Virus record (IMG/VR): IMGVR_UViG_2541047086_000003
Coordinates: 1-64,000 of that record
DNA from: an uncultured virus (IMG/VR IMGVR_UViG_2541047086_000003)
Taxonomy: Duplodnaviria; Heunggongvirae; Uroviricota; Caudoviricetes
Reading direction: 5' to 3' (one strand)
DNA length: 64,000 nt
A program made the translations under genes and the position numbers. This document shows, piece by piece, positions 2,747 to 61,373 of the stretch (its first letter is position 1; every line of letters starts with the position of its first letter). The notes below the pieces were generated by a model, which saw only the letters and a program-made list of their open reading frames with translations, made no database searches and was not told the origin of the DNA.

Positions 2747-2794
2747 ACATTCACCTCTACTAATTTTATTTTTACTCTAAACAAAAGACCGATT

Positions 2795-3226
2795 TTATTT
2801 AATCCTTAATTGCTTAACTTCATTTTCCAGCCATTCAACATACGACATCTCTTGAGTGTTTTTTGCATATTCATTTAATAAAGAATCCTCTTCTATAAAA
2901 TCAAATGCGATTTCTGTTTTTTCATCAATAGGCAAGTAAATAGCTGCAATTCCGTTTTTCGGATAGAAAGAAGTCTCAAACCATGATAAAACGTTATTCC
3001 CTTCATCATCTCTCCAATCATACCGCGCAACGCTTCGATTGTATGCTTCAAAAGGATTCAAATCTAATAAAAATTTAATCTCATCATACTCAATTGAAAC
3101 CCCAATTATTTTCCCCATCATCATGGGATCGACTGATTCTTCAATCCATTCATACACATTGTCATTAAATTTAATAATCGGTTTTTTACCTTGTAATACA
3201 AGTTCATATAATTTAATCGTCTTCAT
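2795..3226 (-). CDS. Hypothetical phage protein
   Basis: 143-aa ORF with GGGAGG RBS. Confidence 0.75.
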   Translation of the reverse strand: MKTIKLYELVLQGKKPIIKFNDNVYEWIEESVDPMMMGKIIGVSIEYDEIKFLLDLNPFEAYNRSVARYDWRDDEGNNVLSWFETSFYPKNGIAAIYLPIDEKTEIAFDFIEEDSLLNEYAKNTQEMSYVEWLENEVKQLRIK

Positions 3227-3488
3227 TGAAATAATCCTCCCTAAACCCTTTCACTGGTTCATAATTTGTCACTTCATAAAATTCTTCTTTTTGATTAAAT
3301 TTGATCGGCTTATCCAATGTTTTAGCATTCCGTTCCAACCACTCTACTGTATTTTTTACTTTGTTATCATATTTTTCATAGCTATCCGACCAATCATAAT
3401 AACTGTCTCTGGTCTTTATTAACCCCAATAGTTCTTTGACATGCTTTAGCTTTACATATTTATTTTCAATATCGGTGATATTGCTCAT
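3213..3488 (-). CDS. Hypothetical phage protein
   Basis: ORF starting MSNITD behind GGGAGG RBS. Confidence 0.7.
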
Positions 3489-3664
3489 TGAAATAACCCT
3501 CCCCAAATCACTCCTGCTGCAATGGCAACAATGAAAACTGAAACAAATTTAATTACACCAATATACACTGCAAATTTAATATTCCCTTTGGAATCCATGT
3601 TTGCTAACAACACAAGCCCAAATGCAACGAACAATATCCATGCTGTAACGATCAGATCACTCAC
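3485..3664 (-). CDS. Small membrane protein (yotH-like)
   Basis: 59-aa ORF with two hydrophobic segments, overlapping both neighbours. Confidence 0.6.
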
Positions 3665-4073
3665 CCCCTTTGATTAACTGTTTGCAAATATTAATATATT
3701 CTTGAATACTATTAATAATCGTGATGATACAGCTCCTTACCTCTTCTGGTTCTTTAAAATCCATCTCACATTTAAGACAGTATTCATCGAACTCAATCAT
3801 TGCAAGAAATTGATCATTGCTTGGTAAATTTTCAAAATCAATTTTCTTTAATCTTGGGATGCCCTTTCCCCTAATCCATTCAATAAAGTAATCAACATTA
3901 TTTTTTGCTGTTGCGATTTTTAAAAACTCGTGAATATCAGAAGAGTTTTCAATATTGAAATAAATGTGGAGACTCTTCTTCATGAGATCAAATAACCGCA
4001 ATAGAGCTTCATCAATGTTATTGTCTGGTTTAAACTCAAAATCTAAATCAAACCAGGACATTGCGTTTTTCAT
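3657..4073 (-). CDS. Hypothetical phage protein
   Basis: 138-aa ORF with RBS. Confidence 0.7.
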
Positions 4074-4467
4074 TCAATCCCTCCCTGTGCAAATCGAATA
4101 TTTCTGGTACCCGTTGAAAGAATGTAATAATACAACCTCTCGCATCAAAAGGGTATTCACAATCAATTTCGGCACCTGATATGTAAATTTCATATTCTAT
4201 GCTGGATATTAGTTGAGGATTATAAGGTAGCTCGAACTGTAAGTACCTCTTCAGATTAGGTAACTGCTCATTGACAAACTTCAAGAACTTCTTTTCATAC
4301 TCAGGAACACGTTCATATAATTTGTTTACATGTTCTTCAATTGTGTTTGCTTGCACTTTGTATAGATTCTCGAACAGCGTTTTGTTGATGTCCATTAACT
4401 CACTTAGAGCTTTAACAGCTCCCTCGTCTCCATTTAGAGTAACACCCCACCATTTATCCAAATGCAC
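4048..4467 (-). CDS. Hypothetical phage protein
   Basis: 139-aa ORF with AAAGGA RBS. Confidence 0.7.
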   Translation of the reverse strand: MHLDKWWGVTLNGDEGAVKALSELMDINKTLFENLYKVQANTIEEHVNKLYERVPEYEKKFLKFVNEQLPNLKRYLQFELPYNPQLISSIEYEIYISGAEIDCEYPFDARGCIITFFQRVPEIFDLHREGLNEKRNVLV

Positions 4468-4498
4468 TTAATCATCCTTTCTATTTAAAATCAACATT

Positions 4499-4660
4499 TT
4501 AATCTGTTGTAATCGTAAATGAACCATCATCTTCATCTAGAGTAATAACAATTTCACGAATACCATTGCCACAGTCACTGAATTCTTGCATTTCCTTTCC
4601 TAGTTTCTGAATTGATTTGGCCAATTCCTCCGGTGTATTTGCCCCTCTTTGTGTACTCAT
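4499..4660 (-). CDS. 53-aa hypothetical protein between two junction motifs
   Basis: MSTQRGANTPEELAKS...FTITTD; RBS GGAAGGGGG; stop lies inside the motif at 4486-4501. Confidence 0.65.
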   Translation of the reverse strand: MSTQRGANTPEELAKSIQKLGKEMQEFSDCGNGIREIVITLDEDDGSFTITTD

Positions 4661-4707
4661 TTTTAAATTCCCCCTTCCAATAAAATTAGAATTTCACCCG
4701 AATCGTA

Positions 4708-4938
4708 TTAATTAACTAATTCCCACTCTCCAGGACTAAGTTGATCTAATGTGAAGAACATTGGCGTACCGTCGTTCATAAACTCAATAATCATCAATCG
4801 ACCTTGTTCATTTCTTGGGCAGCTATCTGGGTTACTGTATGTAGATTCGGCTGTAACAGTTGTATAGGTTCCACCGTAAGCCCAAGAATCACCGATATAT
4901 TTAATTGCGTCTCCTTCTTTAACACTTGAAAAATCCAT
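4708..4938 (-). CDS. Hypothetical phage protein
   Basis: 76-aa ORF with GAGGTG RBS. Confidence 0.7.
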
Positions 4939-5038
4939 GCAATCACCTCACTTCAAATTAATGTGTATAATCTCAAAACATCTCCACACAATACAATTGA
5001 ACAAACTTGTTTTACATACTACTTTAGGAGATGATCAT

Positions 5039-5257
5039 ATGGCTCAACAAAACAGATCAAGATCAAACAATAATAATGAGTTAGTTGTACCGCAAGCTGC
5101 TTCAGCAATTGAACAAATGAAATATGAGATTGCTTCTGAATTTGGTGTTCAATTGGGCGCTGAGACAACTAGTCGAGCAAACGGATCAGTAGGTGGAGAA
5201 ATTACAAAACGTTTGGTTCGACTGGCTCAACAAAGCATGAATGGTCAATTTCATTAA
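5039..5257 (+). CDS. sspC: Alpha/beta-type small acid-soluble spore protein
   Basis: [10 protein letters not shown]...[21 protein letters not shown] signature; sigmaG-like -10 elements upstream; terminator ~5263-5286. Confidence 0.95.
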
Positions 5258-5526: not shown

Positions 5527-5863
5527 TTTAATAGCCCCCAACAAAAACAAATGAAATTATCAATAACCAGAAGACTGCTCCAGAAACAGCAAGAAAGCTT
5601 TTTGCAATACTCATAAACTCTTGAAAATCATTCTTTAACGACTCTTTCACTGCATCACCTTCTCTTTAAAATACAGATTTCATATTAAAAGTTATGATAA
5701 TCAATATCTTTTTTATCCATCGCTTTTCGGATTGCTCGTTCGTGTTTCGATCTCCTTCTTTTGTTGCTTCCTTTAACTTTTGGTGCTTCAAACATTCCAT
5801 CACAAGTCCAGTCATAACCGCTATACTTTTTAAACACCGCAGTCTTCAGGCGTCTATGATGCG

Positions 5864-6586
5864 TCACTCACCTCCTACCTCTTCGCGTGAGTCGTCGATG
5901 ACTTTATAGCCGTATTTACGTGCATCTTTCAAGTATATTACTGCATCACCGGAAAAAGGCGGCCAACTATCGTCTTCAATAACTAGTGCTTTGTGAACCC
6001 CTCTATCATCCGATATAAAATCGCCCACACGAACCTCAGTCGGCTGCGGAGCGTTCAAGTATTCGTCTGGCACCGTCAGGCCTAGCGCACGTCTTAGCGC
6101 GATCGCACGACCAATATGAACGTTGAAGCAGTCGGACGGTGCGGCTTTGGCGATTCCTCGCGCTACGATTTGACCATCCGCTATCCACCGTAAAATTGTG
6201 ACTACGGTTCTTTTCTCGCAATTTACGATAAATTCCGCTTTCGTATTCCGTCCATAAGCGTAGTAGTAACCGTATTTATTCGCCAGTTTCTCAACGTCCG
6301 CCTTCGCCTGCTCAACGATTTCATCGCGTAGGGCTTGGGCGCTTTTCTCCGGCTTCCATAAACGCTCCTCTAGTGTTGTACAGACCGGAGTCGTTACCGT
6401 ATTTACATCGCCAGATATAATAACAACATCTTGATTCGTTTTTGCATAGTGAACAACGAATCTATAAGAATACGCGCCGCCAATAACAATATCTCCAAAA
6501 CGAGATTTATAACCGAAATATTTATCGTCCTTCTTTTCAAATACCGTATTCGCATTATTGATCACCGTTTGATTTACGTTTTCCAT
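5864..6586 (-). CDS. Hypothetical phage protein, GC-richer than surroundings
   Basis: 240-aa ORF; contains ARGIAKAAPSDCFNVHIGRAIALRRA. Confidence 0.75.
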   Translation of the reverse strand: MENVNQTVINNANTVFEKKDDKYFGYKSRFGDIVIGGAYSYRFVVHYAKTNQDVVIISGDVNTVTTPVCTTLEERLWKPEKSAQALRDEIVEQAKADVEKLANKYGYYYAYGRNTKAEFIVNCEKRTVVTILRWIADGQIVARGIAKAAPSDCFNVHIGRAIALRRALGLTVPDEYLNAPQPTEVRVGDFISDDRGVHKALVIEDDSWPPFSGDAVIYLKDARKYGYKVIDDSREEVGGE

Positions 6587-10743: not shown

Positions 10744-10955
10744 GGTCTTTTTCCTCCTTATTGTTTTAGATAAAAGTCTTCTTTTATTGAGATGTTCATT
10801 CCATCAACATCCCTGTATCGACGCCTTTTTGTAAAACCTTTTCCTGAAACAACCTCTTTGTTTGGCATAATTATTGAGCTTTTTGAGTATTTTAAGTTGT
10901 ACCCTGGCTAAGACCCTCCACTGGACAAACATCATGATCTAAGCCAGGGCTTGTA

Positions 10956-17439: not shown

Positions 17440-17469
17440 TTTGTTTCCCCTTCCTATGAAACTGTGATT

Positions 17470-17829
17470 TTATCTAGAAATAACTGAAACCTGCTTTGGT
17501 TTATCAATGTATGGATCAATCGTTTTACTCAAAACATACTCCAGTGTTTTGTATCTGCCTTCCTTGTTTTTTTGGAAACATAGGAGTTCGCCAAGTTCAT
17601 TCAGGCTAATGTTGAAAGGATCATTACTTACCTTTTTTTTAAATGCAGTTAATTCACTGAATTTATCTTTGAATTCCATAAATTGCTCTTGATTCAAGCT
17701 ATCGATTTTATGACCAAGTATCTCAACAAGTTCTAGTCTTCTGTGTTCAATTAGTTCTCTTAATTTTGATCTCAAACCCAAGAACTTTTCGTCTTTTCTC
17801 TGCTCATCAATAAACTCTCTAATGTTCAT
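17470..17829 (-). CDS. Hypothetical phage protein
   Basis: ORF MNIREF... with AAGGAG RBS. Confidence 0.7.
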   Translation of the reverse strand: MNIREFIDEQRKDEKFLGLRSKLRELIEHRRLELVEILGHKIDSLNQEQFMEFKDKFSELTAFKKKVSNDPFNISLNELGELLCFQKNKEGRYKTLEYVLSKTIDPYIDKPKQVSVISR

Positions 17830-17852
17830 TTTCATTCTCCTTTTCATTGCTC

Positions 17853-18785: not shown

Positions 18786-18816
18786 GTCTAATCAACTCCT
18801 TAAAATCATCCTTTTA

Positions 18817-19314
18817 TTAAATAACTAAGTTGCCCTCTCTATCAATTGCTTTATATGTATTCACGTGTTCATTACTGAAAATGACTAGTGCATTAGGGAA
18901 TGGAGCATTAATTTTACTTCCTCCAAATTTTAGTCTGTGTCTAATGAATAAGATTTCACCTTTCATACAGTATTCGTGCCACCAAGCAGAACAAGTTCTT
19001 GCAGGAACAAGACAAACTGCAATTTCTGAATTCCCATTTTCAACTTCTTCATAAGCTTTTTTAATCCATTTTTTAATTTCCCTTCCATATGGAGGATTCA
19101 TCCATACCCTGCCAACCCATTTTTGTTTCAATCCATCAATTTCAGGAGTAAAGAAGTTTTTACATTTAGCGTTTGATGGCTTGGCACACACATCAAGATT
19201 TAACTTATACCTTTCATTGATTTTATTAAAAAAGTCAATTGGGGTAGCCCAGACGTCAGTTCGATCCTCTGGGTTAAAAAATACCCCCTGGTTAAAGTTT
19301 GTTTTAGTCTCTAT
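18817..19314 (-). CDS. Phage DNA N6-adenine methyltransferase (Dam-phage type), apparent ATA start
   Basis: WATP...LDVCA...DGL...WMNPPY...VPART; frame open to ATA behind GAGGGGG RBS. Confidence 0.85.
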   Translation of the reverse strand: METKTNFNQGVFFNPEDRTDVWATPIDFFNKINERYKLNLDVCAKPSNAKCKNFFTPEIDGLKQKWVGRVWMNPPYGREIKKWIKKAYEEVENGNSEIAVCLVPARTCSAWWHEYCMKGEILFIRHRLKFGGSKINAPFPNALVIFSNEHVNTYKAIDREGNLVI

Positions 19315-19354
19315 ATTTAGTTCCCCCTCTGTTTAGATAAAATAAAACTTTCAT

Positions 19355-19777
19355 TTATATCTCACCTGCTACACAGAATTTCCAAAACCTCTTCCACCAG
19401 GAAGTTTTACGTTTTTCTTCTTCCTCTTTAAAGCGTTCATAGTTTTCTTTAACTTGCTGATTCCATTTCTGTATTTTTTCTTGTGTTTGAATCGCTTTTT
19501 CAAGGCTCTCTTTATCTTCAATTGTTTTAATTACCTTGTCAGTCTGATATGTCCATTCATTTTTTGTGTTGCGCTGCCTGTCTGTTACGACTACGTATTC
19601 GTTAAACCCTGGGATATACACTTTCCCTTCGATTTCAATTGGGTCTAAGTCAATGATCCCTTCAAAAAATGGCTGGTATTCACATTGCTGCTCAATTGGG
19701 ACAAGGGCATCACACAGACCTAATGTCCAACTTTTCTTAATTACCTTCCCTTCAAATGTTGCTTTATGCCGTCCCAC
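19355..19777 (-). CDS. Hypothetical SPbeta-type protein
   Basis: 140-aa ORF with GGAGGTG RBS. Confidence 0.75.
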   Translation of the reverse strand: MGRHKATFEGKVIKKSWTLGLCDALVPIEQQCEYQPFFEGIIDLDPIEIEGKVYIPGFNEYVVVTDRQRNTKNEWTYQTDKVIKTIEDKESLEKAIQTQEKIQKWNQQVKENYERFKEEEEKRKTSWWKRFWKFCVAGEI

Positions 19778-20243: not shown

Positions 20244-20423
20244 TCACATTTCATTAAATGCTGTTATTGCCACCAACAGTTGCTTTGCCTCAACTTCTGC
20301 CATTTGATCTCCAATTTGCACCTTTACCCATGTATCTGGATAATCAATACTCTTAGTTGCCAGGAGTTTCAGAGTTTTTCTGTTTACTCCTCTTAATGTG
20401 AATTCGGATGTAATGTCTCTCAT
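20244..20423 (-). CDS. 59-aa phage protein (yosB-like)
   Basis: MRDITSEFTLRG...; AAAGGAG RBS after junction motif 20442. Confidence 0.6.
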   Translation of the reverse strand: MRDITSEFTLRGVNRKTLKLLATKSIDYPDTWVKVQIGDQMAEVEAKQLLVAITAFNEM

Positions 20424-20485
20424 GGTTTTCTCCTTTCTTTATAAAAATTGAATTTTATTTATAATTGATTGCTTTAAACAGTCTC

Positions 20486-21468: not shown

Positions 21469-21537
21469 TAAACTGTCTCCTCTCTATACACTTTTCTTTA
21501 CGTATATCTCGATAAAAGGAATATTTTATTTTTACTC

Positions 21538-40777: not shown

Positions 40778-40815
40778 ATATCCATCTCCCAATCTTGTTA
40801 AAACTACAATTTTAT

Positions 40816-42558
40816 TTAGACTACAATATCTCCTTCTGCTGTCTTCAGCGTCCCACTATCGAATGTGTTATGAATTAAGGTTGTATTCTTTGCTTTATCT
40901 GTGCAATACGGGTGAGATAATAACTTACCTCCAATTCCACGCGCATCGTTTCTGACGAGACGTACTTTGTCCGTATTCTCCAAATAAACACCATATCCTT
41001 GGTCTGTTGACCTGTTAAACATGATCTCATTATCCTTTAATATGTGTTCTGATCCACCAGTCAGTTGAATAGCGATTAATGCTTTACAGAAATAAATCTG
41101 ATTCTCACTAATCTGACAACTGTACTTCTCAGGAGTGCCTTTAATTGCTACGTTCCTAGGCTCATGAATTTCATTTCGTTGCAGCGAGACGGAAGAGTCC
41201 TTATCCCAGAAAATGCCGTATCCACTTCCGTTTAACAATAAGTCATTCCCCTTTAAACGAACTGACTGAGACCTTTCGCAATAAATTCCACCGTACACAT
41301 TTACAAATTCATTATTAATTAGACTGATCCGGGTAGAGTCCATTATCTTTACAGCGTATGCTGAGATTGTTCCTTTCCCTTTGTTGTTCACAACCCTTAC
41401 ATCATTTGAGTTTCTAACCTGGACTTGAATGCAGTCACTGTTCTCTATTCTGTTATCTGTGATTAATACATCTTCTGCCTGATGTGTTGCAATTGGACAT
41501 GCCTTTATCCCTTCTAGAGTATTATTTGATATCGACACGCCTTTTCCTCTTGCGCAAATTCCTACTTCAAACCCTCTTACCGTATTGCCCTCAATTTGAA
41601 CTCTGTTTCCGGATTCCGTACTTGAAACACCAACCGAGTCAATTCCGTATTTCTTAACCTCTGCATCATTGATTATCTTGTTGTTTTTAATGCTGACATC
41701 AGTGCTGAATCCGTAAGAAATAACGTTGTCACTGTAGTTCCCTTCAATAATTACTTGACCGCTTGTGTGAGCTGTAACGGATCCACGTCCGTTGTTTTTA
41801 AACCTGCAGTTTCGCACAGTTAATTTATACGGGTGATCATATTTAATTCCGTTTTCTCCAAAGCCCTCTAAATCAATTCCTAATTGCGGCCCAATTGTAT
41901 CTCCCCCAGCTTCCTCTATATCACAGTCGTCTACAAGAAGACCTTCACAACCATTGGTAGCCAGATTATTTCTTCTCCCTCTCAAAAGAGTACACTTTCG
42001 AACGGTTACATTCTTTGAAGGCGTATATGTTCCTGAAGTATTCATCATTCCATCAGCTGCTATCCAAATGTTATCTCCAATACAGTCAGAGACTTGTACA
42101 TTTTCAATTAACACATTACTGCTACCATGAATATGAATTCCGTATCCCCATTCATGTGTCCTTTTAATTGAAGTTACTTTTGAATAATCGTGTTCATACC
42201 GGTCACCTATAATTTGACCACCGCGAATCGTTACATTACTCGCTTGGCCGATATAGAAACAGGAATAGCCTTGAGAATCATTTGGCAACACCTTAAATAT
42301 TGCCTCTGGATGAAGTACTAGCTCAATATTTGAAGGAACATTTATACCTCCGCCGAATTCAGGCAGCCGCCTTGATGTATTCACAGCATCAATTAGATAG
42401 GTACCTTTTGGAATATGTACTTTATAGAATGATTTTGAGCTTGCGTACTTTAAAGCTCGGTTTATCCCTTCTGTCGTTTCAATAGCATTTGACCCTTTAT
42501 CATCAATTCCCCAATCCAGAGCATCAACAGAATAGTATAATGGCTGCTGCATGTTCAT
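40816..42558 (-). CDS. yorA: Right-handed beta-helix (pectin-lyase-like) protein
   Basis: IPKGTY motif and repeated beta-helix pattern. Confidence 0.85.
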   Translation of the reverse strand: MNMQQPLYYSVDALDWGIDDKGSNAIETTEGINRALKYASSKSFYKVHIPKGTYLIDAVNTSRRLPEFGGGINVPSNIELVLHPEAIFKVLPNDSQGYSCFYIGQASNVTIRGGQIIGDRYEHDYSKVTSIKRTHEWGYGIHIHGSSNVLIENVQVSDCIGDNIWIAADGMMNTSGTYTPSKNVTVRKCTLLRGRRNNLATNGCEGLLVDDCDIEEAGGDTIGPQLGIDLEGFGENGIKYDHPYKLTVRNCRFKNNGRGSVTAHTSGQVIIEGNYSDNVISYGFSTDVSIKNNKIINDAEVKKYGIDSVGVSSTESGNRVQIEGNTVRGFEVGICARGKGVSISNNTLEGIKACPIATHQAEDVLITDNRIENSDCIQVQVRNSNDVRVVNNKGKGTISAYAVKIMDSTRISLINNEFVNVYGGIYCERSQSVRLKGNDLLLNGSGYGIFWDKDSSVSLQRNEIHEPRNVAIKGTPEKYSCQISENQIYFCKALIAIQLTGGSEHILKDNEIMFNRSTDQGYGVYLENTDKVRLVRNDARGIGGKLLSHPYCTDKAKNTTLIHNTFDSGTLKTAEGDIVV

Positions 42559-43379: not shown

Positions 43380-43553
43380 TTAATAACCACTCCTTTTTAT
43401 TTTTGTTTTATTCTTAAAACTCAAATCACATAGGTAACTCACATTGTTATCACCCCCTTAAATAAAAAATTACTTTTATTCAAAAATCAATACGATTAAT
43501 CAACTCCTTAAGGTAAAATATGAGTATCTCTCTTTGAAAGGATTGAGCTATTC

Positions 43554-43730: not shown

Positions 43731-43761
43731 GGTATTTACCCTTCTCTTTAAATTATCGTTT

Positions 43762-44034
43762 TTATTCAGTTTCTTTTCTTACCCATTTTCTAACCTTAAC
43801 TTCCTTAAGCTCAACTTCAAAACACTCAACCTGGTCATCGTATTCCCATGGTCTCTCCTCTTGTAACTCTGTAGCGCCTTCCCTGTAAGTTGTCTCATAA
43901 AACTTGTCTTGAAATGCAAACACAATACGATAATGAATACTCCACCTAGACGTATCAGTGATTTCTTCTAAAATTGAGGATTCAGGCAGCCCCAATTCAT
44001 TTACCATGTAATCTTTGTCCAATTTAATTTTCAT
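43762..44034 (-). CDS. Hypothetical phage protein
   Basis: 90-aa ORF; stop inside junction motif. Confidence 0.7.
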   Translation of the reverse strand: MKIKLDKDYMVNELGLPESSILEEITDTSRWSIHYRIVFAFQDKFYETTYREGATELQEERPWEYDDQVECFEVELKEVKVRKWVRKETE

Positions 44035-45950: not shown

Positions 45951-46763
45951 TTGTTTGTATCGCCAATGTTATTGCATTCAATAAAAGAGCCATTTGACGA
46001 CGAGAACTATTTCACTGAGCTCAAATTTGACGGAATCAGACTCATCCTTTCAAAATTTGATAATCAGATTAAGCTATATACTCGTCACAACAATGAAGTA
46101 ACAAGCAAGTTCCCAGAACTCTTGGATCTCGATATACCCAATGGAACTGTTTTAGATGGTGAAATTATTGTTGCTGCCCCAGGCGGTGCTCCTGATTTCG
46201 AGGCTGTAATGGAACGCTTTATGTCTAAGAAATCAGCCCATAAGGTGGTTTACTGTGTATTCGATGTAATTTATATTGATGGGCATTCAATCGCTAATAA
46301 GCCGCTCACTGAACGTAAAAACATGCTTTTAAATCTTAACCTTGATCACGATAATGTATATGTTATTGAGGGCCTGCAAGGAAAAGGGTTAGCTTACTTT
46401 AATCTAGCCAAAGAAAAGCATCTTGAAGGAATCGTACTAAAGAAAGCTAACTCCCCTTATGAAATCAATAAACGTTCCCACAGCTGGCTGAAAGTGATTA
46501 ACTATGATTACACAGATGTCCTTATCACTGGCTACACCAAAGAGGATATAAAATTTCTTCTGTCTTATCCTGATGGTACGGCAGCTGGATTTATGGAATT
46601 CATGCCGAACGCAGAACGAAGTAAGTTCCACTCTATGAAACATGTAAAGTCTGAATCTGATGAATATGTATTTATAGAACCGATCTTATGTAAGGTTAAG
46701 CACAGATTTAAGACTAAGCATGGTAAACTCCGCATACCTTCCTTTGAATCCTGGAGAGTCTAA
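45951..46763 (+). CDS. ligB: ATP-dependent DNA ligase
   Basis: ELKFDGIR, LDGE, FDV, EGIVLK, WLK motifs. Confidence 0.95.
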   Translation: MFVSPMLLHSIKEPFDDENYFTELKFDGIRLILSKFDNQIKLYTRHNNEVTSKFPELLDLDIPNGTVLDGEIIVAAPGGAPDFEAVMERFMSKKSAHKVVYCVFDVIYIDGHSIANKPLTERKNMLLNLNLDHDNVYVIEGLQGKGLAYFNLAKEKHLEGIVLKKANSPYEINKRSHSWLKVINYDYTDVLITGYTKEDIKFLLSYPDGTAAGFMEFMPNAERSKFHSMKHVKSESDEYVFIEPILCKVKHRFKTKHGKLRIPSFESWRV

Positions 46764-47842
46764 TCTCTCCGTTACATAATTCCTTAATGTCTCTTTCTTA
46801 ACAAAATTCAAAATCTATTACATTAACACTTTAAGTTAGTTCTATTCCATCTCAATCCACTTATAATATTTCCCTATATGACAATCAAAGCGCCAACCAT
46901 CCTCAATGACTTTCGTATGACTATTCTTATATTTCGAGTGATTTAATAACACCCTAGGAGAAAACATTATTCTCTGCCAATTAAATAATTCTTTCATTTT
47001 TCATACCCCTTTCCTTGTGAATTTTCACTTTTGATAACAATGTTATCTTTACAGTTCGTTCAATTAAATATTCTGCATTGCAATAATCGCATTTTACTCT
47101 AAATTCAAGAGATGGCTCATAAACAATGGTTTCTCCACAAATCTCACAAGGAAAAACATCTTCATTAATTCTCCCCATAAATAAATCACATCCTTTAAAA
47201 TAACTATTTTATTTTTATTCTTTAATAATCACCAAATATCATAGCCCACAAAATCATTTAGAATATTCGTCATTTATTCTCCTCCTCCATTTCCATATCC
47301 GCTATGGGAACTACTTCCGAATAACCCGAGGGAAACGACTAATGCTGTTATAAACGACGACAGTATAAGGGGAATCAAAAATACTGCCAAGCCGGTATAG
47401 TTACCCGACTCAAATGTAATAAGCTGTGTGATCGAATATGCGAAAAAGAAAACATATGCCCCGTACGTAATCCAAAACCGCAATTATTCACCCTCCAATC
47501 GTTTTAATGCTTCATTGTTTTCGTATATAGTTTCGTTAATCAATACTCTACGAGCTTTCTCCTTCGTAGTTATCCGGAATGTACAGTCGTCTCTCCCATA
47601 CATCTCGCAATAAACAACGTAATCGCGGAATAGGTCGTTCATATACTCGATGTCGCCGCATCCGTACAACTTACCGTTCAGAAAGCACGCATATATTTGC
47701 CCCATATGCTCCACCTCAATTTTCTTCATGTTTTTTTCAATTCTTTTTGATTTTCATATTGCTTTTCACTCTTTTATTAATAGAGGCATGTCTTACGCAT
47801 GTCATCTAAGAGAGATAGGACATTCTTGGGAGGTGAAAGGTA

Positions 47843-47995: not shown

Positions 47996-48446
47996 TATTC
48001 TCTCTATGATCGATATCTATATGGTTACTGCTTTAGATAGCGATCTTCTAGGAGTTTAATTTAAATTCAACACCCAAAAAGTCACATAGCTCTTCCTTAA
48101 AATCCGGTTCTCCAAATGTTCCATTCAACAACCTGTGTTCTAAAACATTGAGAGTAACCTCTTCAGGTTCCCACTGATCTTCTAAACCGTGGCATGAACA
48201 GTGGGAACCATTAACCTCGAACAATTTCCCTTCCTCTTCAAATAGAACCCAAGCGTGCCCTTCACAAATGTCACCATCATAAGAGGCAAACAGAATGTTT
48301 ACATCAGTTTCTTTTTCTTCAAAGTCTGACAAAACGTCAACCTTTTCTTTTCCTTCCCATTCGTTCAGGAGTACTGATTTTTGATTAATGATTTCTTCAA
48401 ATTTTTTCATTGTTACTCCCCCCATTTTCACTTTGAAAACTATCTT

Positions 48447-48962
48447 TTAATTAGATATCGTTATTGAACTCCAATCAAACGTTTCGAGAATTTTAAGCAG
48501 CCGCTCTACTTTCGGTGCCCTCCAAGCTGTCATTGCGTAAGTATGAGCTTCTGAAGTGTAGTGATGCCTATTTAATTTGATATGAGCCTTCGCTTCTGCT
48601 TTGGTCAAAAACATTGTATCCGGCCGTACAATATGAACCTTTCTTTCTGGAATTAATTCTGCTTCTTCATCAATGTATTTTTGAATCCACTCAATAGGAT
48701 CATCAAAGTCATCCTTTTTCAACTCTGTTAAAGCTTCCTTAGAGAGCTCACTATCTTCTTTTAAATCTTCTAAATAATCATCTAAAACATATGCTTCTGC
48801 AATATATGGCAGGTATACAGAATACCGTTCTGCGTTTTCTTCTCGAACTTCGACCCATTCATAATCGCCAACTGTCCAGAAACGCGGTGCAGCTTGACAG
48901 TCGCTGTCTTGATTTTTCAACTCTTGCTGAAGTTCTTTTAAAAACTGAATATCTTGATTCAT
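48447..48962 (-). CDS. yoqJ: YoqJ-like protein
   Basis: 171 aa; QAAPRFW...AWRAPKVE. Confidence 0.6.
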   Translation of the reverse strand: MNQDIQFLKELQQELKNQDSDCQAAPRFWTVGDYEWVEVREENAERYSVYLPYIAEAYVLDDYLEDLKEDSELSKEALTELKKDDFDDPIEWIQKYIDEEAELIPERKVHIVRPDTMFLTKAEAKAHIKLNRHHYTSEAHTYAMTAWRAPKVERLLKILETFDWSSITISN

Positions 48963-49539
48963 TCGCTTCCTCCTATCTGTTTAAAATCACGATTTCATTC
49001 AGTCCCACTGCCTGATGATCTTAAATCCCTTCTCTATATATAAGCAACGCTGTATTATGAGTTCGACCTGTATTTATTGAATTATATTTGATATCAATAA
49101 CTTCAATCTTTTTTGATTCCGCTCTTATAAAACCGTTTATTAGTCTATCAATTTCAACCCATTCACCATTGCAATATTCATCTTGGAATATCCTTGTTTT
49201 AATCATTGTTTAAACCCTTTCTTTAATGAACTTTTTTCGTTTAACTTTCGGAAAACATATTAATCTACTAACATTAATAACTCATCGACTTCATAATTAT
49301 ATTCACCGTATTCACCAGAGTCCCATTCAACGCCTACAGAACCTTGATTTGTCGTCCACAATATAATTCCCATCTCTCCATCTTCATGCCACCTTACTCG
49401 CTTCCCTTTCTGATAACCAAGCATGTTTCCACCCCTTTCTTGAGAAAGCATTTTAATTTAACTTTAATGTGGATCACCTTGAGAAAATCCCCTTTAATTG
49501 GTAAACTCATACCTAACTTACATACGAGTGGGTGATTCC

Positions 49540-49914: not shown

Positions 49915-52253
49915 CTCTTTGCCTTTTTTAAGCTAAATACTTCTTCTTATGTGGTCTTCTATGTACAAAATCAAATGCGATATCAACTTTTTCCGTTTCC
50001 TTCTCATTTGCTACTCGTTCCGTAACAACAATCAGTTGTCCATTTTCCTGGTGATCAATGCTATGGACTGAATATCCTTTAGCAGCGTAATATTCACCAA
50101 TAATCTCATCAACGTGATTGCTAAGCAGATTCCTCTTTATCACCCTTATAACCTCCATTTATTTTATTTTTACTCTTTAAGAATTTATATGTATTCCATC
50201 CACAGCCATCAGATATGCTTATATCCGCTCCAAGATGCCACTTAAACCAAACTAAGTTAAACCAGGCTGTATCAATTATGTATTTGATGTATCCTATGCT
50301 AACGACATCCTTTCAACTAATTTTTCAATGAATTCTTCTTTTCTTTATCAATATCTTTCTTAAGCATATCCTCAATCTCCTCCAATTTATCAACCACTTC
50401 AAATGTAAATTCATCATCATTGGTATAGCGAATCTGATCACTTGCTTTCTTTACAAGCTCAAGCGCAACTTGTCTCGGATCTTTATAGTTCTCACTCAAA
50501 TTCCCACCTCATTTCATTGAAATAATCCTTTTAAACAAATACCAACTCTGGCTCTTTATCCTCTTCATATCGTTTATAGCCAATAAAGTAATTCTCATCT
50601 GTTTTATAGATAAATGGTGAAATCCAATCAATAAAATTCTCAATTTCATTATTATAGTTTTTTAGATTGCATCTAATTGTTGCATAATACCCATCTACTA
50701 GAGTATCCCTTACAATTTCACTGTGGGTTTTGCCATCAAAATAATAACTATCAGATTGAAGCATGAATCGCCACCTGTTCCCTTCAAGAAACAGCTTATG
50801 CTCTGGAAGCTCATTTGGTTGTTCATCTCGTTGACCAGTCATAAACTCTAAAATTTCAATTATGCAACTTGGTGTTTCCTTAATAAGTTCAAAAGCACAT
50901 ACCAATTCTGTATACATCCCCATTAATACATCTCCCTCTCTTTAAAACAGTCTTTTTATTGAAAATATTTATCTGATGTGCAGGCCATTTCTTCCTCGCC
51001 TAAATAGTTTTTTATTTCATTTAAGCTATAAATGACCTTATTGAATTTACTCCTAATGTGCAGTGCAAATTCAACTGATGAATCGGACATCCCTAATTCC
51101 TTTAGATTTGTGTCTAATTCTTTAAAGTAACCTTGTAACTTTACGTTCACTGAAAACTCTCCTTTTTTTGTTGAATTCTTATTAAAGCTCAATTTTATTC
51201 AATTTCTTCAGAAAAATGCTCTTCTTGAATTACAGATTCTCCCCTAGTGTTCACTATTCCAATTTGTAAAAGAGAAGGTGAGTATGACCAAGACTCTCTT
51301 TCCATCCCAAGCAACGAAGATAATTTTTCAATTTTCGCATTTGCCTTTGCTTCAATTTCTTTCTCCATCCTCATGTGAACATAATCTCTATGTTTTGCAT
51401 GGTACTCGATTCTTTCTTCACATAATCTAAGCTCTTCTTTGGCCTCTGAAAGCAAGAAGTTTAATGCAACTTGTTCCTGTGTTTGATATCTTCTCATATA
51501 GCTCCTCTTTCCATTAAAATTTTACTTTTAATCTAATTTCCTCATATCATCCCTCTGTTTAATATAGCTTTTGAAATATTCCCAATCCTGATCAATCTCC
51601 TTAATGTTAAGTTCAATGAAATCCTCTGCCTTTTTTCCATCTATAATGTTACTTACAGAAAGTTGGAACATCATCTCAATTTTCGCGATTCTCTCAGCAA
51701 GATTTCGAGAGTACTCTTTTGCTCTATTTAAGCGCCCTTGACTTAAACCGTGTTTTGTTTCCATACAGTTCCCTCCCTATCAAAAAATTTTGCTAAATAT
51801 ATAGTGTTGACCTTTAAATCCATAGGTATCACTGAATAGCATATTACCGTACCTATCATCATTGTCTGACCAATGTTTTAGTCTGTCGAGCTTATTACGA
51901 CTCATCAATAACGAAAAAGTTGCTTTCCTTAGCCATGTCGTAATCTTGCTTATCTCGAATATAAGCGATAAATTTTTCGTCAACAGCCCCAAATTCCAGA
52001 ACCTCAACGTAAACCGGTTGATAATCGTCCCCTTCAATGCTTACTTTTCCGCCGTTTGCAACCGCTTCTTTATAGGCACGTTCAATCCCATACTCATCCT
52101 CAATAAACAACGCTGCGTAATCTCCGTCTCCGTAAACGTTAATAATTTTCATCGTTTTACCTCCCGTTAATTTGTATTCAAGCGCTTTTTTCAAATCATT
52201 CTTTTCCCAATTTCATTACTCCCCCTTGAGATACTTTAAAATGCATCTTTTAT

Positions 52254-52661
52254 TCACTTCTTTGTAGCATAGCTTTCAAAGAATTCTTCAATTGATCTAA
52301 GGTAACGGTATTTATTTGGATCTTCCGGATTTCTGAATCTTTTCGATAGCACCAATGACCAATTAAACATCAACGGTGAAAACCTCGCCCATTTGCTAAA
52401 GCTTAACTGAAGACCTTTCCACTCTCTTCCCGCTAATTCTGCTAATTTCAGAATTTGATCTTCTTTTAAATTCACTTCTTCTTCAAACATCACTTGAATT
52501 TCTTCGTATGGTTTATGCCCAAAACAACAGTGGCGTGTTTTTAATCCAATCTTGAAATTTAAAATATCAATTAAATTGATCATTTGTGTATCAAGCTCAT
52601 CATAGGGAATACCATTTGCAATGAATTTTTCTCTTTGGTTTGTTTTCACATTAACCTCCAA
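52254..52661 (-). CDS. yoqC: YoqC-like protein
   Basis: 135 aa; TRHCCFGH motif; synteny. Confidence 0.6.
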
Positions 52662-53006: not shown

Positions 53007-54017
53007 TCCGCACCCTCCTTCACTATATAACCTTTTAAAATTGCCTGATTCAGATCATCAGCATACATACTATTCAGTGGTTCAAACAATCCAGTCCACG
53101 GTTCGACGTCACCATTATTGATGACAAATTGTTTCCCTACAAATTGAAGGCGCGCAAATTCTTTTTTGTCCCCATTTGTTAAGTCGTTCACTCTCTGAGG
53201 GTCATTATCAGCCATTCTTAAATAAAAATTCTTACCTTCCTCAATTGCTCGTGCCTGTGCTTTTGTGACTTCAACCTTATCGCTTGTTTTAATTGTGATT
53301 TTGTTCACTCCATAACCTCCTTAATAACCCGATTACTCCTTCTATCTGCAAAAATGTTTGTTTGGTATTCCTGTAACTGATTTTCAATAGTTTCCACAGA
53401 AGCTAAAGGGAAAGCAGTTTTTTCCCACAATATAAAATCACACTGCTTATCATTGGCATCGGGAAAGTAATTCCTCACTAAATCTATCCACGTCATTCTG
53501 AACCCTCCTTTGCTTTTATAAGATTTTTATCACTCCATTGAAAAATTTCTTTCAACTTGTTTACGGGGTTACTGAATACCATTCGATAACCGTTAATAAG
53601 AGTGAGGCGCGTTTGGCCACCAGGTTGCTCTTCAATAGCTACTATATCCTCATTGGTAAACTCGAGTTCAATTCCACCTCTAAATCCAACTTTGAATTTT
53701 TTAAATCCATTTTGCATCATTATTCCTCCCTCGTTTCAAAACTCAATAAAACTTACATTTTATTTTTATCCTTAATATATTCATGCTGATTCACAACATC
53801 ACGAAGTATGTATTGTATTTCCTCTAAATTGTCTTTAACAAAGTCCAGGTCTCCTATTGCCATTCTGATTTCATTATTCTCTATGCTGCGCAAAGATCTT
53901 TCGCATGATGCTAAGAGCTTTTCATATTTCCTTAAAACCATAGTTCTTATTTGATCGTTAATTTGTTCATTAATCAATAATTAAAGCTATCTCCTTTCCT
54001 TATTCTAATTCGATTAT

Positions 54018-57742: not shown

Positions 57743-58801
57743 TCACTTGTTCAAAAACATTTTAAGTTTATTCTGTATATACATGTCTGATTTTAAAAAG
57801 AATTCTTTATATTGCTCTAAAGTAACATCTTCTAAAAAGGACATGTCTTCTTTTTGATCAACCAAAACCCCTGGATCTTGAGAATAATCCCTTTCATTGA
57901 CTAAATAATGGTCATTTAAAGTATTGATATTACTGTGGCCAGAGAACGCTGCCACTTTTTTAATATCACCATTAACGCTGTAAGAAAAGTTTGTTGCAGT
58001 ATTGCGTAAACTATGCGGAGTTATCTTTCTTTCTTTGGGAATGCCCATAACTCTACATACGCGATTCCACATATCCTGTATTGAATCAACTGTTAACTTA
58101 TGAAATAAAAGCTCATGTTCCCCATACTCTTGCTTTAACAGCAACAACTCTTCATAAAAAGCAGTGGAAATCCCAACTGGCCTAGCCTTTTTTTGCTTAG
58201 TTTTTTTAAAGGTGACGAGATAGCATTGGTGCTTTTCTGAATAAGTAATATCATCCCACCCAACTCTAAGCACCTCTGATTTACGCCCACCAGTACGTGC
58301 ACTAAACAAAATAAACATCTTTTTCATTAATCTGTTCTGACGCTCAGTAACATAAGCTGCCTCAGCAAACTCATCAGCTTCCGATATTCCTTCAAAAGAC
58401 CCTGCTGGGTTCTTTTCTGTTGGAAGAGGTCTAAAATTAAATACAGATGAATCACACTCATGTTCAGATTCAAGGTACTTAATCATACTTTTCAGTGCGG
58501 CAATCTTATTGTTAATTGTTGAATTGGAGTTACTTTTATTTTTAGCCAAATGGGTTCGATAATCATACAGGTCACTCTTCTTAATCGCCAGGTCACTCTC
58601 AGTTAAATATTCAATATCCTTGGCAGCATAGTGGTTGAAAAACTCTCTTATATGCCTCTCATACGTGGCTCTAGTATTAGACTTTTCAATTTCTCCAGTT
58701 TCTCGATCCCTGTTTCTTAAATCTAATTCATCAAACCACCTATTTATGTTGTTGTATATTGAATAATCCCTTAGTGTTGACGCTTTCTTTTGAGCTTCCA
58801 T
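57743..58801 (-). CDS. yopP: Tyrosine recombinase with intact catalytic residues (SroD)
   Basis: TGGRKSE, KTK, HSLR, SGHS, DHY motifs. Confidence 0.88.
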   Translation of the reverse strand: MEAQKKASTLRDYSIYNNINRWFDELDLRNRDRETGEIEKSNTRATYERHIREFFNHYAAKDIEYLTESDLAIKKSDLYDYRTHLAKNKSNSNSTINNKIAALKSMIKYLESEHECDSSVFNFRPLPTEKNPAGSFEGISEADEFAEAAYVTERQNRLMKKMFILFSARTGGRKSEVLRVGWDDITYSEKHQCYLVTFKKTKQKKARPVGISTAFYEELLLLKQEYGEHELLFHKLTVDSIQDMWNRVCRVMGIPKERKITPHSLRNTATNFSYSVNGDIKKVAAFSGHSNINTLNDHYLVNERDYSQDPGVLVDQKEDMSFLEDVTLEQYKEFFLKSDMYIQNKLKMFLNK

Positions 58802-59776: not shown

Positions 59777-59788
59777 TTTAATTCCCCC

Positions 59789-59825
59789 ATGTTCTTGTTT
59801 TTTATATTATGAATTTCTGGAACAT
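59789..59825. promoter_or_regulatory. Putative AimR operator
   Basis: Perfect inverted repeat ATGTTC-N25-GAACAT between aimP and aimX. Confidence 0.8.
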
Positions 59826-59838
59826 TCTCTTAAAATTA

Positions 59839-59871
59839 GAAAAGACGCCTGATCCAGTGGATCAAACGTCT
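59839..59871 (-). terminator. Terminator between aimP and aimX
   Basis: agacgtttgatcca-c-tggatcaggcgtct hairpin followed by a T run. Confidence 0.75.
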
Positions 59872-59897
59872 AGCCAAGTTATGTATCATCTTTGAAG

Positions 59898-60038
59898 TTA
59901 AGCCCCGCGGCTTGGTGATGCAACTTTTACAGGCTGGTCTACATGGTCTACCGATGCTGTCTCAATTGATTGTTGTCCGGCAACAAATCCAACAGCCATT
60001 GCTAACAAGATTACTATTCCAAGAATAATATTTTTCAT
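59898..60038 (-). CDS. aimP: Arbitrium peptide precursor; mature peptide SPSRGA
   Basis: MKNIILGIVILLAMAVGFVAG...PVKVA-SPSRGA; signal peptide and RGA C-terminus. Confidence 0.93.
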   Translation of the reverse strand: MKNIILGIVILLAMAVGFVAGQQSIETASVDHVDQPVKVASPSRGA

Positions 60039-60059
60039 TTAATTCACCCCCCTTCAATT

Positions 60060-61208
60060 TTAGACCATGATTAATTCAAGTAATTTTTCGTCACAGCCCA
60101 TTTTCCTTAGCTCCGCTAATGGAAGATTGATAAATAATTTATCACCAGATTTTTTCAACTTTGCAGTGCTTTCATAAAAATAATTCTTATTTTGGTATAG
60201 AATCCCCTTAATGTAATCTAGAATCCCAGAATCATATTCGTATAATTTCATATTTTCAAGCTCATTTATTACTTTCTCTGCTTTATTAAATTCCTTATTA
60301 TTAGTATAGTAATATGCTACCTCAATCTTATCAGGGATATTATCAGTGTCGAAGTCAAGCCATTTATTATCCTTGTTCCATACGTTACTTAAAAAGCAAA
60401 GAGCTAATCGCAGCTTATATTTATGATGTTCATTATCACGCGCAAATTCCAATCCTTTAAGATACTGCTCTTTGGCTTTAGAGTAGCTTTCAAAAATTAA
60501 TGTGTTCCCATATGTTAAATGCCCAAATACTTTTAGGCGATTTATATTTGAATTTTGAATAACTTGTTCTGAATAATACCTAGATTTTTCAATTTCATTA
60601 TCATTCAAATAAATATTTGCATTTAATAATGAAATTCTATTCATATAGCAATCTTTCACAAAGCCTTCGGGTAAGTCGTTGAAATTGAGAAGTGACAATG
60701 TGCTTTTCATCAATCCAAACTCGCCTACCTTCAAATACTCATACATCAGCATAGCATTTGAGAAAAACAACATTTCATCTGTTTTGCACTTTCCGGTTGC
60801 TCTTATTGCATCAGTTAAACTTATCTTACTTTCGCTCAATCTTCTATGTATACTGTATGTATTGCCCCATTCTTGACTTGCTAGGTTTTTTGAACTAGAT
60901 AGCCTCGACACTATCTTGTCTGTTAACGTATCCCATTGATTAATATCTGAGTATTCAACAGATTGTCTGGCACATTTTTTGTTGGGATCCAGTGATAAGA
61001 AGTAATCACTTAGAAGCTGCTCCTCATTATCAGGAAACAAGCTTTTAACAATATTAATTAAACCGCCTAAGTTGTCCATTTCTTTCTCTGGGGTGTTGAT
61101 GAATTTGTAAAAGCCGTTAACCTTTTCGTACCCTGCTATTTTTGAGAGTTTCGCTGCGAGCTGGTTGTCTTTTTCACATTCATTCTTAATCATCTGCTTT
61201 AGATTCAT
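60060..61208 (-). CDS. aimR: Arbitrium receptor (RRNPP/TPR family)
   Basis: 382 aa; N-terminal HTH-like region, LDPNKKCARQSVEY; upstream of aimP. Confidence 0.93.
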   Translation of the reverse strand: MNLKQMIKNECEKDNQLAAKLSKIAGYEKVNGFYKFINTPEKEMDNLGGLINIVKSLFPDNEEQLLSDYFLSLDPNKKCARQSVEYSDINQWDTLTDKIVSRLSSSKNLASQEWGNTYSIHRRLSESKISLTDAIRATGKCKTDEMLFFSNAMLMYEYLKVGEFGLMKSTLSLLNFNDLPEGFVKDCYMNRISLLNANIYLNDNEIEKSRYYSEQVIQNSNINRLKVFGHLTYGNTLIFESYSKAKEQYLKGLEFARDNEHHKYKLRLALCFLSNVWNKDNKWLDFDTDNIPDKIEVAYYYTNNKEFNKAEKVINELENMKLYEYDSGILDYIKGILYQNKNYFYESTAKLKKSGDKLFINLPLAELRKMGCDEKLLELIMV

Positions 61209-61226
61209 TGGTTACTCCACCCCTTC

Positions 61227-61300
61227 CCAACTAATGTTCCCTTGTTTATAATATACATTAGAGTTGTCAGAATTACAAGTATTTATTTTATTTTTATTCT
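61227..61300 (-). promoter_or_regulatory. aimR promoter with SPBRE-like repeat and a degenerate SOS box
   Basis: Repeat 61286-61300; TTGTAA...TATATT; GGAAC-ATTA-GTTGG at 61240-61227. Confidence 0.55.
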
Positions 61301-61373
61301 AATTCTTTTTTGAAGGATCCGTATCTGTTTAAAATTCGTATTTTATTTAAAAGGGGAGCATCTCCCCCGGCTT

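Follow-up and report, generated by a model that had tools for sequence, protein, structure and literature searches.

Location and composition of the repeated palindrome

The DNA analyzed here, referred to as the window, comprises 64,000 nucleotides (nt) of the uncultured virus record IMGVR_UViG_2541047086_000003 and represents the first half of a 128,463-base SPbeta-like phage genome. The GC skew is negative across the whole window, and the minus strand carries nearly all long open reading frames (ORFs). In a database comparison, positions 43,760–50,960 showed 86–92% identity to SPbeta-like Bacillus phages (25 phage records), and Pfam assignments between 55.3 and 61.2 kb comprise AimR-like and MrpR-like proteins, a DndB/ParB-like YopQ homologue and a YopP-like tyrosine recombinase. 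The element under study is a 16-bp quasi-palindrome, TRAAA-N6-TTTYA, in which two inverted arms enclose a six-base centre and which recurs at the gene borders of the window. An earlier note on this DNA had listed 24 copies and interpreted them as an integron-like gene-cassette architecture. At 21 of these positions the motif is exact, and the sites at 2782, 43749 and 51182 deviate by one mismatch each. Comparisons were made within a set of seven genomes, i.e., this phage together with SPBc2, SPbetaL2, phi3T, SPR, Goe14 and BUCT083, the last six being referred to as the relatives. The sites are listed below without strand; the strand of adjacent ORFs is given in brackets.

2782..2797: junction palindrome with one mismatch (coding strand ends TTTTG); holds the stop of ORF 2795..3226 (minus); exact sites with the same centre in 6/6 relatives
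4486..4501: junction palindrome, exact; holds the stop of 4499..4660 (minus); start of 4048..4467 lies 18 nt beyond; centre in 4/6 relatives
4681..4696: junction palindrome, exact; non-coding; centre in 6/6 relatives; downstream flank different in Goe14
5667..5682: junction palindrome, exact; 2 nt past the stop of 5685..5867 (minus); centre in 5/6 relatives; upstream flanks different in Goe14 and BUCT083
10771..10786: junction palindrome, exact; non-coding; centre in 0/6 relatives
17457..17472: junction palindrome, exact; holds the stop of 17470..17847 (minus); called start 17 nt beyond
18801..18816: junction palindrome, exact; abuts the stop of 18817..19191 (minus); 16-mer in 5/6 relatives, with five upstream and five downstream contexts
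19338..19353: junction palindrome, exact; stop of 19355..19777 (minus) 1 nt away; centre in 6/6 relatives
20442..20457: junction palindrome, exact; start of 20244..20423 (minus) 18 nt beyond; 16-mer in 6/6 relatives
21513..21528: junction palindrome, exact; 16-mer in 6/6 relatives; overlaps a copy of a second repeat, TAAAAATAAAAT
23682..23697: junction palindrome, exact; start of 23443..23661 (minus) 20 nt beyond; 16-mer in 2/6 relatives
40799..40814: junction palindrome, exact; stop of 40816..42558 (minus) 1 nt away; called start 21 nt beyond
43463..43478: junction palindrome, exact; non-coding; 16-mer in 2/6 relatives
43749..43764: junction palindrome with one mismatch; holds the stop of 43762..44034 (minus); exact sites with the same centre in 2/6 relatives
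47196..47211: junction palindrome, exact; start of 46981..47178 (minus) 17 nt beyond
48434..48449: junction palindrome, exact; holds the stop of 48447..48962 (minus); centre in 6/6 relatives
48982..48997: junction palindrome, exact; start of 48447..48962 (minus) 19 nt beyond; in SPbetaL2, this downstream gene follows a different centre
50518..50533: junction palindrome, exact; holds the stop of 50531..50923 (minus); start 18 nt beyond; upstream flank different in SPbetaL2
50943..50958: junction palindrome, exact, the most promiscuous joint; holds the upstream stop (50956); 16-mer in 7/7 genomes, with five upstream and five downstream contexts
51182..51197: possible junction palindrome with one mismatch, membership uncertain; holds the stop of 51195..51497 (minus); no site with the same centre in the six relatives
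51515..51530: junction palindrome, exact; holds the stop of 51528..51764 (minus); start 17 nt beyond; 16-mer in 5/6 relatives, with four upstream and five downstream contexts
52237..52252: junction palindrome, exact; stop of 52254..52661 (minus) 1 nt away; 16-mer in 6/6 relatives
53747..53762: junction palindrome, exact; start of 53493..53720 (minus) 26 nt beyond; centre in 6/6 relatives
61330..61345: palindrome before the promoter-like region of the aimR-like gene, exact; 121 nt upstream of the start of 60060..61208 (minus)

The copies represent dyad sites that are conserved and located at gene borders, where exchange between related phages is concentrated and partly maps inside the sites.

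Occurrence of the motif compared with random expectation

In the window, 25 exact copies of TRAAA-N6-TTTYA were counted, compared with 2.94 expected from 100 dinucleotide shuffles (standard deviation 1.73, maximum 8; none of the 100 shuffles reached 25), and the repeated quasi-palindrome is therefore real. The enrichment also stands against an AT-rich intergenic background, a comparison suggested in the earlier note: in the non-coding DNA of the window (14,918 nt, 65.6% A+T), 20 copies are present compared with 0.43 or 0.72 expected under shuffle and Markov models, respectively, the maxima of the 1000 trials being 3 and 5. Allowing up to one mismatch yielded 66 sites compared with 48.7 expected, i.e., the one-mismatch class is not enriched; nevertheless, the six-base centres at 2782 and 43749 recur in exact copies of relatives, as listed above. 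Four exact copies beyond the 24 sites of the earlier note were observed. All of them lie inside ORFs, their number equals the chance expectation, and since about three chance matches are expected per window, they probably arose by chance:

27482..27497: exact match inside ORF 26923..27630, probably chance
35648..35663: exact match inside the helicase-like ORF 35476..36990, probably chance or coding-driven; SPBc2 has a match at a like place in yorI
46316..46331: exact match inside the ligase-like ORF 45951..46763 (plus strand), probably chance
53539..53554: exact match inside ORF 53493..53720, probably chance

A scan with fixed arms and spacer lengths (k) of 0–14 nt returned the 25 copies at k = 6 and 0–7 copies at all other lengths. 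In the whole 128-kb genome, 38 copies with k = 6 were found, dispersed over its length and preceding genes of both strands; SPBc2 has 36. Two of the latter are annotated in the SPBc2 record merely as 'stem_loop', and the two features named 'palindrome' in that record are other sequences. A full-text literature search that included papers on SPbeta did not reveal any description of this element; as the genome paper of 1999 lay outside its coverage, an earlier mention is possible.

Distribution across phages and hosts

The six relatives carry 36 (SPBc2), 42, 34 (phi3T), 40, 37 and 39 copies compared with 2–5 for the reversed pattern. Host DNA is poor in copies; in the 4.5-Mb genome of Bacillus rugosus including its prophage, 180 copies were counted compared with 95 for the control. 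Furthermore, the surroundings of yonO were screened at 72 loci, and those of Paenibacillaceae keep the excess at k = 6, with 41 copies compared with 7–21 at other spacer lengths. Two full Paenibacillus prophages, which represent islands of about 35% G+C in hosts of 52% G+C and encode a YonO of about 55% identity, contain 49 and 72 copies at k = 6 compared with 1–7 at other spacers. The core of these copies reads A-TAAAA-N6-TTTTA-T, and a Shine-Dalgarno (SD) sequence follows 1–2 nt after the motif in 26 of 56 oriented copies, further weak ones having been missed by the SD pattern. The Paenibacillus copies and their k = 6 excess indicate that the motif is old and a conserved hallmark of large YonO-encoding prophages. 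A scan of viral contigs with the extended 28-bp pattern gave, among the matches listed, mostly single ones. Two other Paenibacillus genomes harbor yonO homologues on small low-G+C islands of about 30–40 kb with one and zero palindrome copies; these islands appear to be either remnants or elements of another type.

Position at gene borders and symmetry of the site

On the coding strand, the typical order is stop codon (often the motif's own TAA), motif, a few bases, SD sequence and start codon. Nine stop codons had been placed within the motif by the earlier note, and nine ORFs indeed end there (2795, 4499, 17470, 43762, 48447, 50531, 50956, 51195 and 51528); however, the genes lie on the minus strand, so that each stop corresponds to the complement of the terminal TTA of the motif. 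Five further stops are 0–2 nt away, in accordance with the note. Its statement that a start codon usually follows closely was met by a called start 17–26 nt beyond 12 of the 21 non-coding copies, small genes being missed by the caller. In the seven SPbeta-like genomes, an SD sequence and a start were found downstream in exactly one orientation for 121 of 266 copies, mostly at a motif-to-SD distance of 4–11 nt (mode 8 nt). According to the SPBc2 annotation, 14 of 36 copies lie 19–35 nt before a start, 10 hold the upstream stop and about five are within genes; the others are beside terminators or upstream of the aimR and yorE promoters. The SPBc2 counterpart of the 61330 copy occupies the same place, with a terminator on one side and the aimR promoter on the other. 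Some copies precede promoters or separate genes that converge or diverge. An exceptional layout was observed at SPBc2 50182–50197, where the SD sequence of yonB is within the six-base centre and the start codon directly follows the motif.

A sequence logo of 86 distinct non-coding 16-mers from the seven genomes represents a mirror-symmetric dyad of about 28 bp with the extended consensus T-Y-T-n-n-W-TAAAA-K-nnnn-M-TTTTA-W-n-n-A-R-A. Together with the spacer scan, it confirms the geometry of inverted arms around a 6-bp centre that the earlier note had compared with tyrosine recombinase sites: the TAAAA/TTTTA arms, the mirrored flanks (T-Y-T ... A-R-A) and the strict 6-bp centre correspond to the layout of lox/dif-type core sites. 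The polarity proposed in the note is visible within the window, where the position after TAAAA on the coding strand is T or G in 24 of 25 copies compared with A or C in 14 of 25 at the mirror position, and largely disappears in the 86-site set (81% compared with 76%), which is nearly symmetric. No conserved positions were present at −15 to −7 in this logo.

Pairing covariation is absent among 182 distinct 32-mers, in which mirrored variable positions are complementary at chance rate (z −2.4 to +0.9); the complementary part of the site is restricted to the fixed 5-bp arms, and the halves vary independently. A preference for G-U over A-C on the coding strand was not found among the 121 oriented sites (10 AC, 5 GT). 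Furthermore, no Rfam family matched at the sites, Rfam having identified just two group I introns elsewhere in the window. The missing covariation rules out an RNA or DNA hairpin and indicates a double-stranded dyad site. As judged from the sequences, symmetry combined with independent halves is consistent with a dimer on double-stranded DNA, and fits neither a folded RNA nor an attC-like single strand.

A second, strand-specific repeat, (T)TTWAGAR-TAAAAATAAAAT, was observed on the minus (coding) strand of the window, for example at 2774, 7386, 7475, 9946, 16736, 21534, 21795, 39973, 44940, 47217, 50172, 53768, 54058, 59554 and 61296. In the genome, TAAAAATAAAA occurs 29 times on the gene strand compared with four times on the opposite strand. 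At 7475, 21795, 39973, 54058, 59554 and 61296, −35-like and −10-like hexamers follow directly, resembling an UP-element arrangement, and elsewhere an SD sequence comes next. Three copies (21534, 47217 and 53768) overlap the left arm of the palindrome, and the repeat is visible in the spacer scan of the window as 33 counts of TTTYA-N1-TTTYA.

Association of the sites with gene exchange

Exchange was analyzed by local BLAST among the seven genomes. In a de-duplicated and matched junction test, which considered co-directional gaps of 15–90 nt in motif-dense neighbourhoods, homology broke at 53 of 74 motif junctions compared with 77 of 193 matched junctions (odds ratio 3.8, p = 5e-6). Breakpoints between related phages, which the earlier note had proposed to inspect, are thus enriched at motif junctions. 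A previous junction count (153/218 compared with 402/990) was pseudo-replicated and is superseded by this test. Oriented by transcription, homology from upstream stops at +13 to +25 in 49 of 85 cases, and homology from downstream starts at −2 to +2 in 48 of 86; consequently, the whole 16-mer remains in the shared part either way.

Based on ungapped flank classes, 97% of the pairs sharing the upstream flank and differing downstream (n = 69) had identical centres, and so did 91% of the pairs sharing the downstream flank and differing upstream (n = 57). Ungapped classes misjudge some indel-shifted flanks, and the classes were redone with gapped scores: among 48 16-mers occurring in at least two genomes, 40 were associated with at least two flank classes, and 20 with at least two on each side. 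Moreover, variants of the arms were evaluated in 330 unique same-centre pairs. Differences in the right-arm variant were observed in 29 of 201 pairs whose downstream flanks differ compared with 2 of 129 sharing this flank (p = 3e-5), independently of the upstream flank (p = 0.55), and the left-arm variant follows the upstream flank (19/223 compared with 2/107, p = 0.027) and not the downstream flank (p = 1.0). Each arm variant thus goes with the flank on its side around an unchanged centre, and some of the exchange points consequently lie within the motif, between centre and arm.

The order of centres is kept between SPBc2 and the window, and 12 shared 16-mers are collinear in the Paenibacillus pair, in which 18–24% of the ends of high-scoring segment pairs are at a site compared with 3.5–3.8% of the span. 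Genes adjacent to sites have homologues in 1.78 and 1.47 of the six relatives compared with 3.08 for other genes (p = 0.018), in agreement with the connection between sites and accessory genes made in the earlier note. In total, 509 distinct single-copy islands were recorded, of which 81 hold the motif and 52 more overlap one; this enrichment is rough, many of the other islands being located in diverged homologous genes.

In one RNA library (run X1), a contig tracks the window to 47221, i.e., 10 nt past the copy at 47196–47211, and continues with other sequence. This departure may represent another junction variant in the same sample.

Candidate proteins and transcript data

Three kinds of proteins were considered as candidate binders, namely YopP-like, YomM-like and YonN-like proteins. 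The first is encoded in the window:

57743..58801, minus strand: gene of a YopP-like XerC-type tyrosine recombinase, candidate only; general Pfam families Phage_integrase and SAM-like N domain; R, H-x-x-R, H and Y align with XerA (4a8e)

This protein has a XerC-type architecture, and its identity amounts to 76% to the phi3T type and 32% to SPbeta YopP. No array adjoins the gene. A YomM-like, weakly Cre-like protein is kept in 6/6 relatives at 62–88% identity and was found in one of the two Paenibacillus prophages. Furthermore, an HU-like gene (YonN homologue) is located about 0.9 kb downstream of yonO in 26 of the 72 yonO loci; loci with this gene contain 57 copies at k = 6 compared with 18.0 at other spacers, and loci lacking it 60 compared with 33.0, a comparison confounded by phylogeny.

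Two RNA libraries carry the phage at 100% identity as contigs, which span the copies at 50518, 50943 and 51182, DNA carry-over being possible; two raw-read runs gave zero and two reads. A function of the palindrome as YonO promoter was ruled out, since YonO initiates the late operon at a single site upstream of yonK, as deduced from 5'-end enrichment and primer extension in the available text of PMC5467207.

Further features of the window

Adjoining the aimR-like gene, an ApeA-like protein, composed of an N-terminal ApeA and a HEPN domain, is encoded at 61374–62771 (minus strand), likely representing a defence gene. A gene for an alpha/beta-type small acid-soluble spore protein (SspC-like) was identified at 5039–5257 (plus strand, opposite to the flanking genes), with 89–93% identity in 6/6 relatives. 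The two group I introns (Rfam RF00028) are located on the minus strand in the ribonucleotide reductase region at 14943–15235 and 15640–15893, scoring 68 and 90 bits. Assemblies titled Streptomyces sp. (a 133,358-base contig of about the phage's length) and Paenibacillus sp. encode a YonO 96% identical to that of this phage and are probably contaminated or mislabeled.

Comparison with known systems

Heterospecific lox/FRT sites have the same arms and different spacers, pair with sites of like centre and are used for engineered recombinase-mediated cassette exchange; the Cre site consists of 13-bp arms and an 8-bp spacer. The palindromes resemble such sites in their shared arms and distinct centres and in that their order is kept while the intervening content swaps. 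However, lox/FRT exchange is engineered, and the palindromes show no signature of double-site exchange. The layout of dif is 11+6+11 bp, to which the 28 bp of the extended logo may be compared, and its arms differ for XerC and XerD, whereas those of the palindrome are mirror images with 5–6 strongly conserved bases each. As far as described in the available text of PMC6449649, the Xer-dependent pdif/dif modules of Acinetobacter plasmids likewise have inverted arms and a 6-bp centre, occur in accessory regions and flank adaptive genes. These modules are bounded by sites on both sides, while no pairing excess of palindromes was present among 454 replaced or indel segments.

PeSL (promoter-early stem-loops) of T4-type phages, as presented in the available parts of PMC2839356 and PMC4122927, are short non-coding repeats flanking variable genes of a large phage, at which insertions, deletions and replacements between relatives begin or end; both they and the palindrome are possibly regulatory elements doubling as recombination substrates. 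The palindrome shares with them that it is a repeated non-coding motif bordering variable genes where relatives differ. Judging from the titles of these papers, PeSL are composite promoter-terminator elements, whereas the palindrome has neither a promoter consensus (positions −15 to −7 were inspected) nor a stable, covarying stem-loop. Unlike PeSL, each copy of the palindrome has its own six-base centre, with an order kept among relatives.

Within the SPbeta group itself, SPBRE, the operator of the master repressor MrpR (YopR/SroF), is also a repeated non-coding element, and it is bound by a protein of recombinase fold. MrpR ChAP-seq yielded ten peaks at promoters in the available text of PMC10516654. 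A de novo search in the ten named SPBc2 promoter regions recovered the non-palindromic sequence AYAAAWAATATGTATA in 10/10; this SPBRE motif was derived here from the promoter regions. As stated in the available part of bioRxiv 10.1101/2025.11.27.690993, SroF binds a phage-specific box of 24–26 bp as a monomer. SPBRE thus differs from the palindrome in sequence, lack of symmetry, number (about ten promoter peaks), phage specificity and monomeric binding; the palindrome is not phage-specific, being present in 34–42 copies in all relatives.

Interpretation of the sites and weighing of alternatives

Based on the positions of homology breaks and the behavior of centres and arms, we tentatively favour the interpretation that the sites are addressed crossover joints, i.e., dyad sites at which SPbeta-like phages exchange flanking genes, over an operator or architectural site and an RNA-level signal. 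The copies are read as dyad-symmetric sites on duplex DNA that are most likely occupied by a protein dimer, with little room left between the upstream stop codon and the ribosome-binding site of the following gene. Each joint combines the common TAAAA/TTTTA arms and weaker flanks with its own six-base centre, which would act as its label; the centres keep the same order among relatives while the genes between them differ. We infer that a protein binds the sites and that exchange takes place at the site itself; this exchange could proceed by a tyrosine recombinase needing matching centres (the phage's YopP-like or YomM-like protein, or host Xer) or by short-homology recombination at the shared arms. 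A more specific and rather doubtful version holds that Bacillus and Paenibacillus SPbeta-like phages carry 35–70 lox/dif-like sites with common arms and individual six-base overlaps, and that a tyrosine recombinase (YopP-like, YomM-like or host Xer) would join like-centred sites exclusively, in two co-resident genomes; this would amount to a natural recombinase-mediated cassette exchange by which relatives trade blocks of genes in register and without flanking homology.

Several results weigh against crossover joints. Among 454 unique replaced or indel segments, 13% of the left and 13% of the right ends are at a copy (the corresponding zone being 2% of the genome), 344 (76%) touch no copy, and both ends are at a site in 10 segments compared with 7.9 expected (p = 0.41); accordingly, the sites do not represent the principal route of mosaicism. 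The observed enrichment could be a side effect, as exchange is tolerated in any case at junctions of independent variable genes, and the gaps leave so little room that a viable break necessarily adjoins the motif. All counts refer to pairs or junctions among related genomes and not to independent events, so that relatedness inflates them, and genes were called crudely, with about 81% of the genome covered and small genes missed. Strong conservation is limited to 5–6 bases per arm, which is short for a recombinase arm, and YopP is 32% identical between phage groups carrying identical sites. With one exception, the crossover intervals of phi3Ts x SPbeta hybrids obtained in the laboratory are identical blocks of 1.4–18 kb; crossovers inside such long blocks point to ordinary homologous recombination and are not placeable at a site. 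The remaining interval of 40 bp is 7 kb from any site, and the edges of the identical blocks lie 2–7 nt from copies in four of five distinct long intervals.

A less probable, though possible, explanation is a purely operator-like or architectural site, corresponding to the dimeric regulator site named as an alternative in the earlier note. Gene borders would be occupied by a conserved DNA-binding dimer (the HU-like YonN homologue, the ParB/DndB-like YopQ, a small helix-turn-helix protein or a host factor) that silences, insulates or organises early and accessory genes; breaks would gather there for the sole reason that the adjacent genes are independent and dispensable and that recombination readily uses a short conserved island. 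Dyad symmetry without covariation suits a dimer on duplex DNA, as do copies outside the ribosome-binding-site context, e.g., those of SPBc2 between a terminator and the aimR or yorE promoters, and this explanation accommodates both the missing paired-end signature and the 76% of replaced segments that avoid sites. The excess of copies at yonO loci with the HU-like gene points in the same direction, with the phylogenetic confounding mentioned above. On the other hand, the ten MrpR ChAP-seq peaks reported in the available text of PMC10516654 are at a different motif, arm variants moving with their own flank around a fixed centre are not expected of a passive island, and a purely architectural site need not shun coding DNA so strictly. 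An RNA-level signal, also listed in the earlier note, is less likely and appears improbable: an A/U-rich element 5' of the SD sequence would act in translation initiation or re-initiation, or in processing or stabilising long early transcripts into gene-sized units. The tight positional coupling to the ribosome-binding site in the SPbeta-like genomes and in Paenibacillus agrees with such a role, as do the RNA-library contigs running through three copies, subject to the possible DNA carry-over. Tight packing alone, however, accounts for the motif abutting the SD sequence, mirror symmetry is superfluous for RNA recognition, and a 5-bp A-U stem is not stable. Neither covariation, nor a G-U preference, nor an Rfam family was found at the sites analyzed, and some copies are located ahead of promoters or separate convergent or divergent genes.

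The integron-like architecture of the earlier note was partly right as an analogy and fails as membership. Its sites are real, non-coding, located by variable genes and enriched at homology breaks; a true integron-like system, in which site, ribosome-binding site and ORF form a cassette that is excised as a circle and re-inserted by an integrase, is nevertheless highly unlikely. Like attC, the sites mark the 3' ends of small genes that appear to lack promoters, their sequence often includes the stop codon, and tyrosine recombinase genes and variable neighbouring genes are present. However, attC sites represent long imperfect repeats, recombine in the form of folded single strands and form one array next to intI, attI and Pc. 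The palindromes are 16–28 bp in length, contain no long imperfect repeat and show no covarying fold among the 182 distinct sites; the 38 copies are dispersed over 128 kb in both gene orientations instead of forming one same-direction array behind an integrase, attI and a promoter. Site-bounded units gave no sign of moving as cassettes, segments bounded by two sites showing no excess (10 of 454 compared with 7.9), and the spacer does not travel with a given gene, as the centre stays put while either flank changes. Integrons of phages are the subject of PMC9892861, as far as its available text indicates. Identity of the motif with SPBRE has a vanishingly small probability and was ruled out on the basis of the SPBRE motif derived here. 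SPBc2 copies do lie near the SPBRE-bearing promoters of aimR, yorE and yosX, and MrpR has a tyrosine recombinase fold according to the available text of PMC10516654. Nevertheless, the ten ChAP-seq promoter regions share AYAAAWAATATGTATA, a different motif with zero matches in phi3Ts compared with 34 palindrome copies in phi3T, and the monomeric, phage-specific binding of SroF described in the available part of bioRxiv 10.1101/2025.11.27.690993 does not fit the palindrome.

Implications for SPbeta-like phages

SPbeta has been a model prophage for 50 years, yet the literature covered here yielded no account of the motif. If the sites are exchange joints, they would provide a concrete, testable mechanism behind the modular, mosaic genomes of large temperate phages and the fast turnover of their defence and counter-defence genes, and a possible job for the orphan recombinases YopP and YomM. 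If they are operators, they would constitute a second genome-wide regulatory layer besides MrpR/SPBRE. Under either interpretation, the motif represents a sharp marker of this phage lineage across genera.

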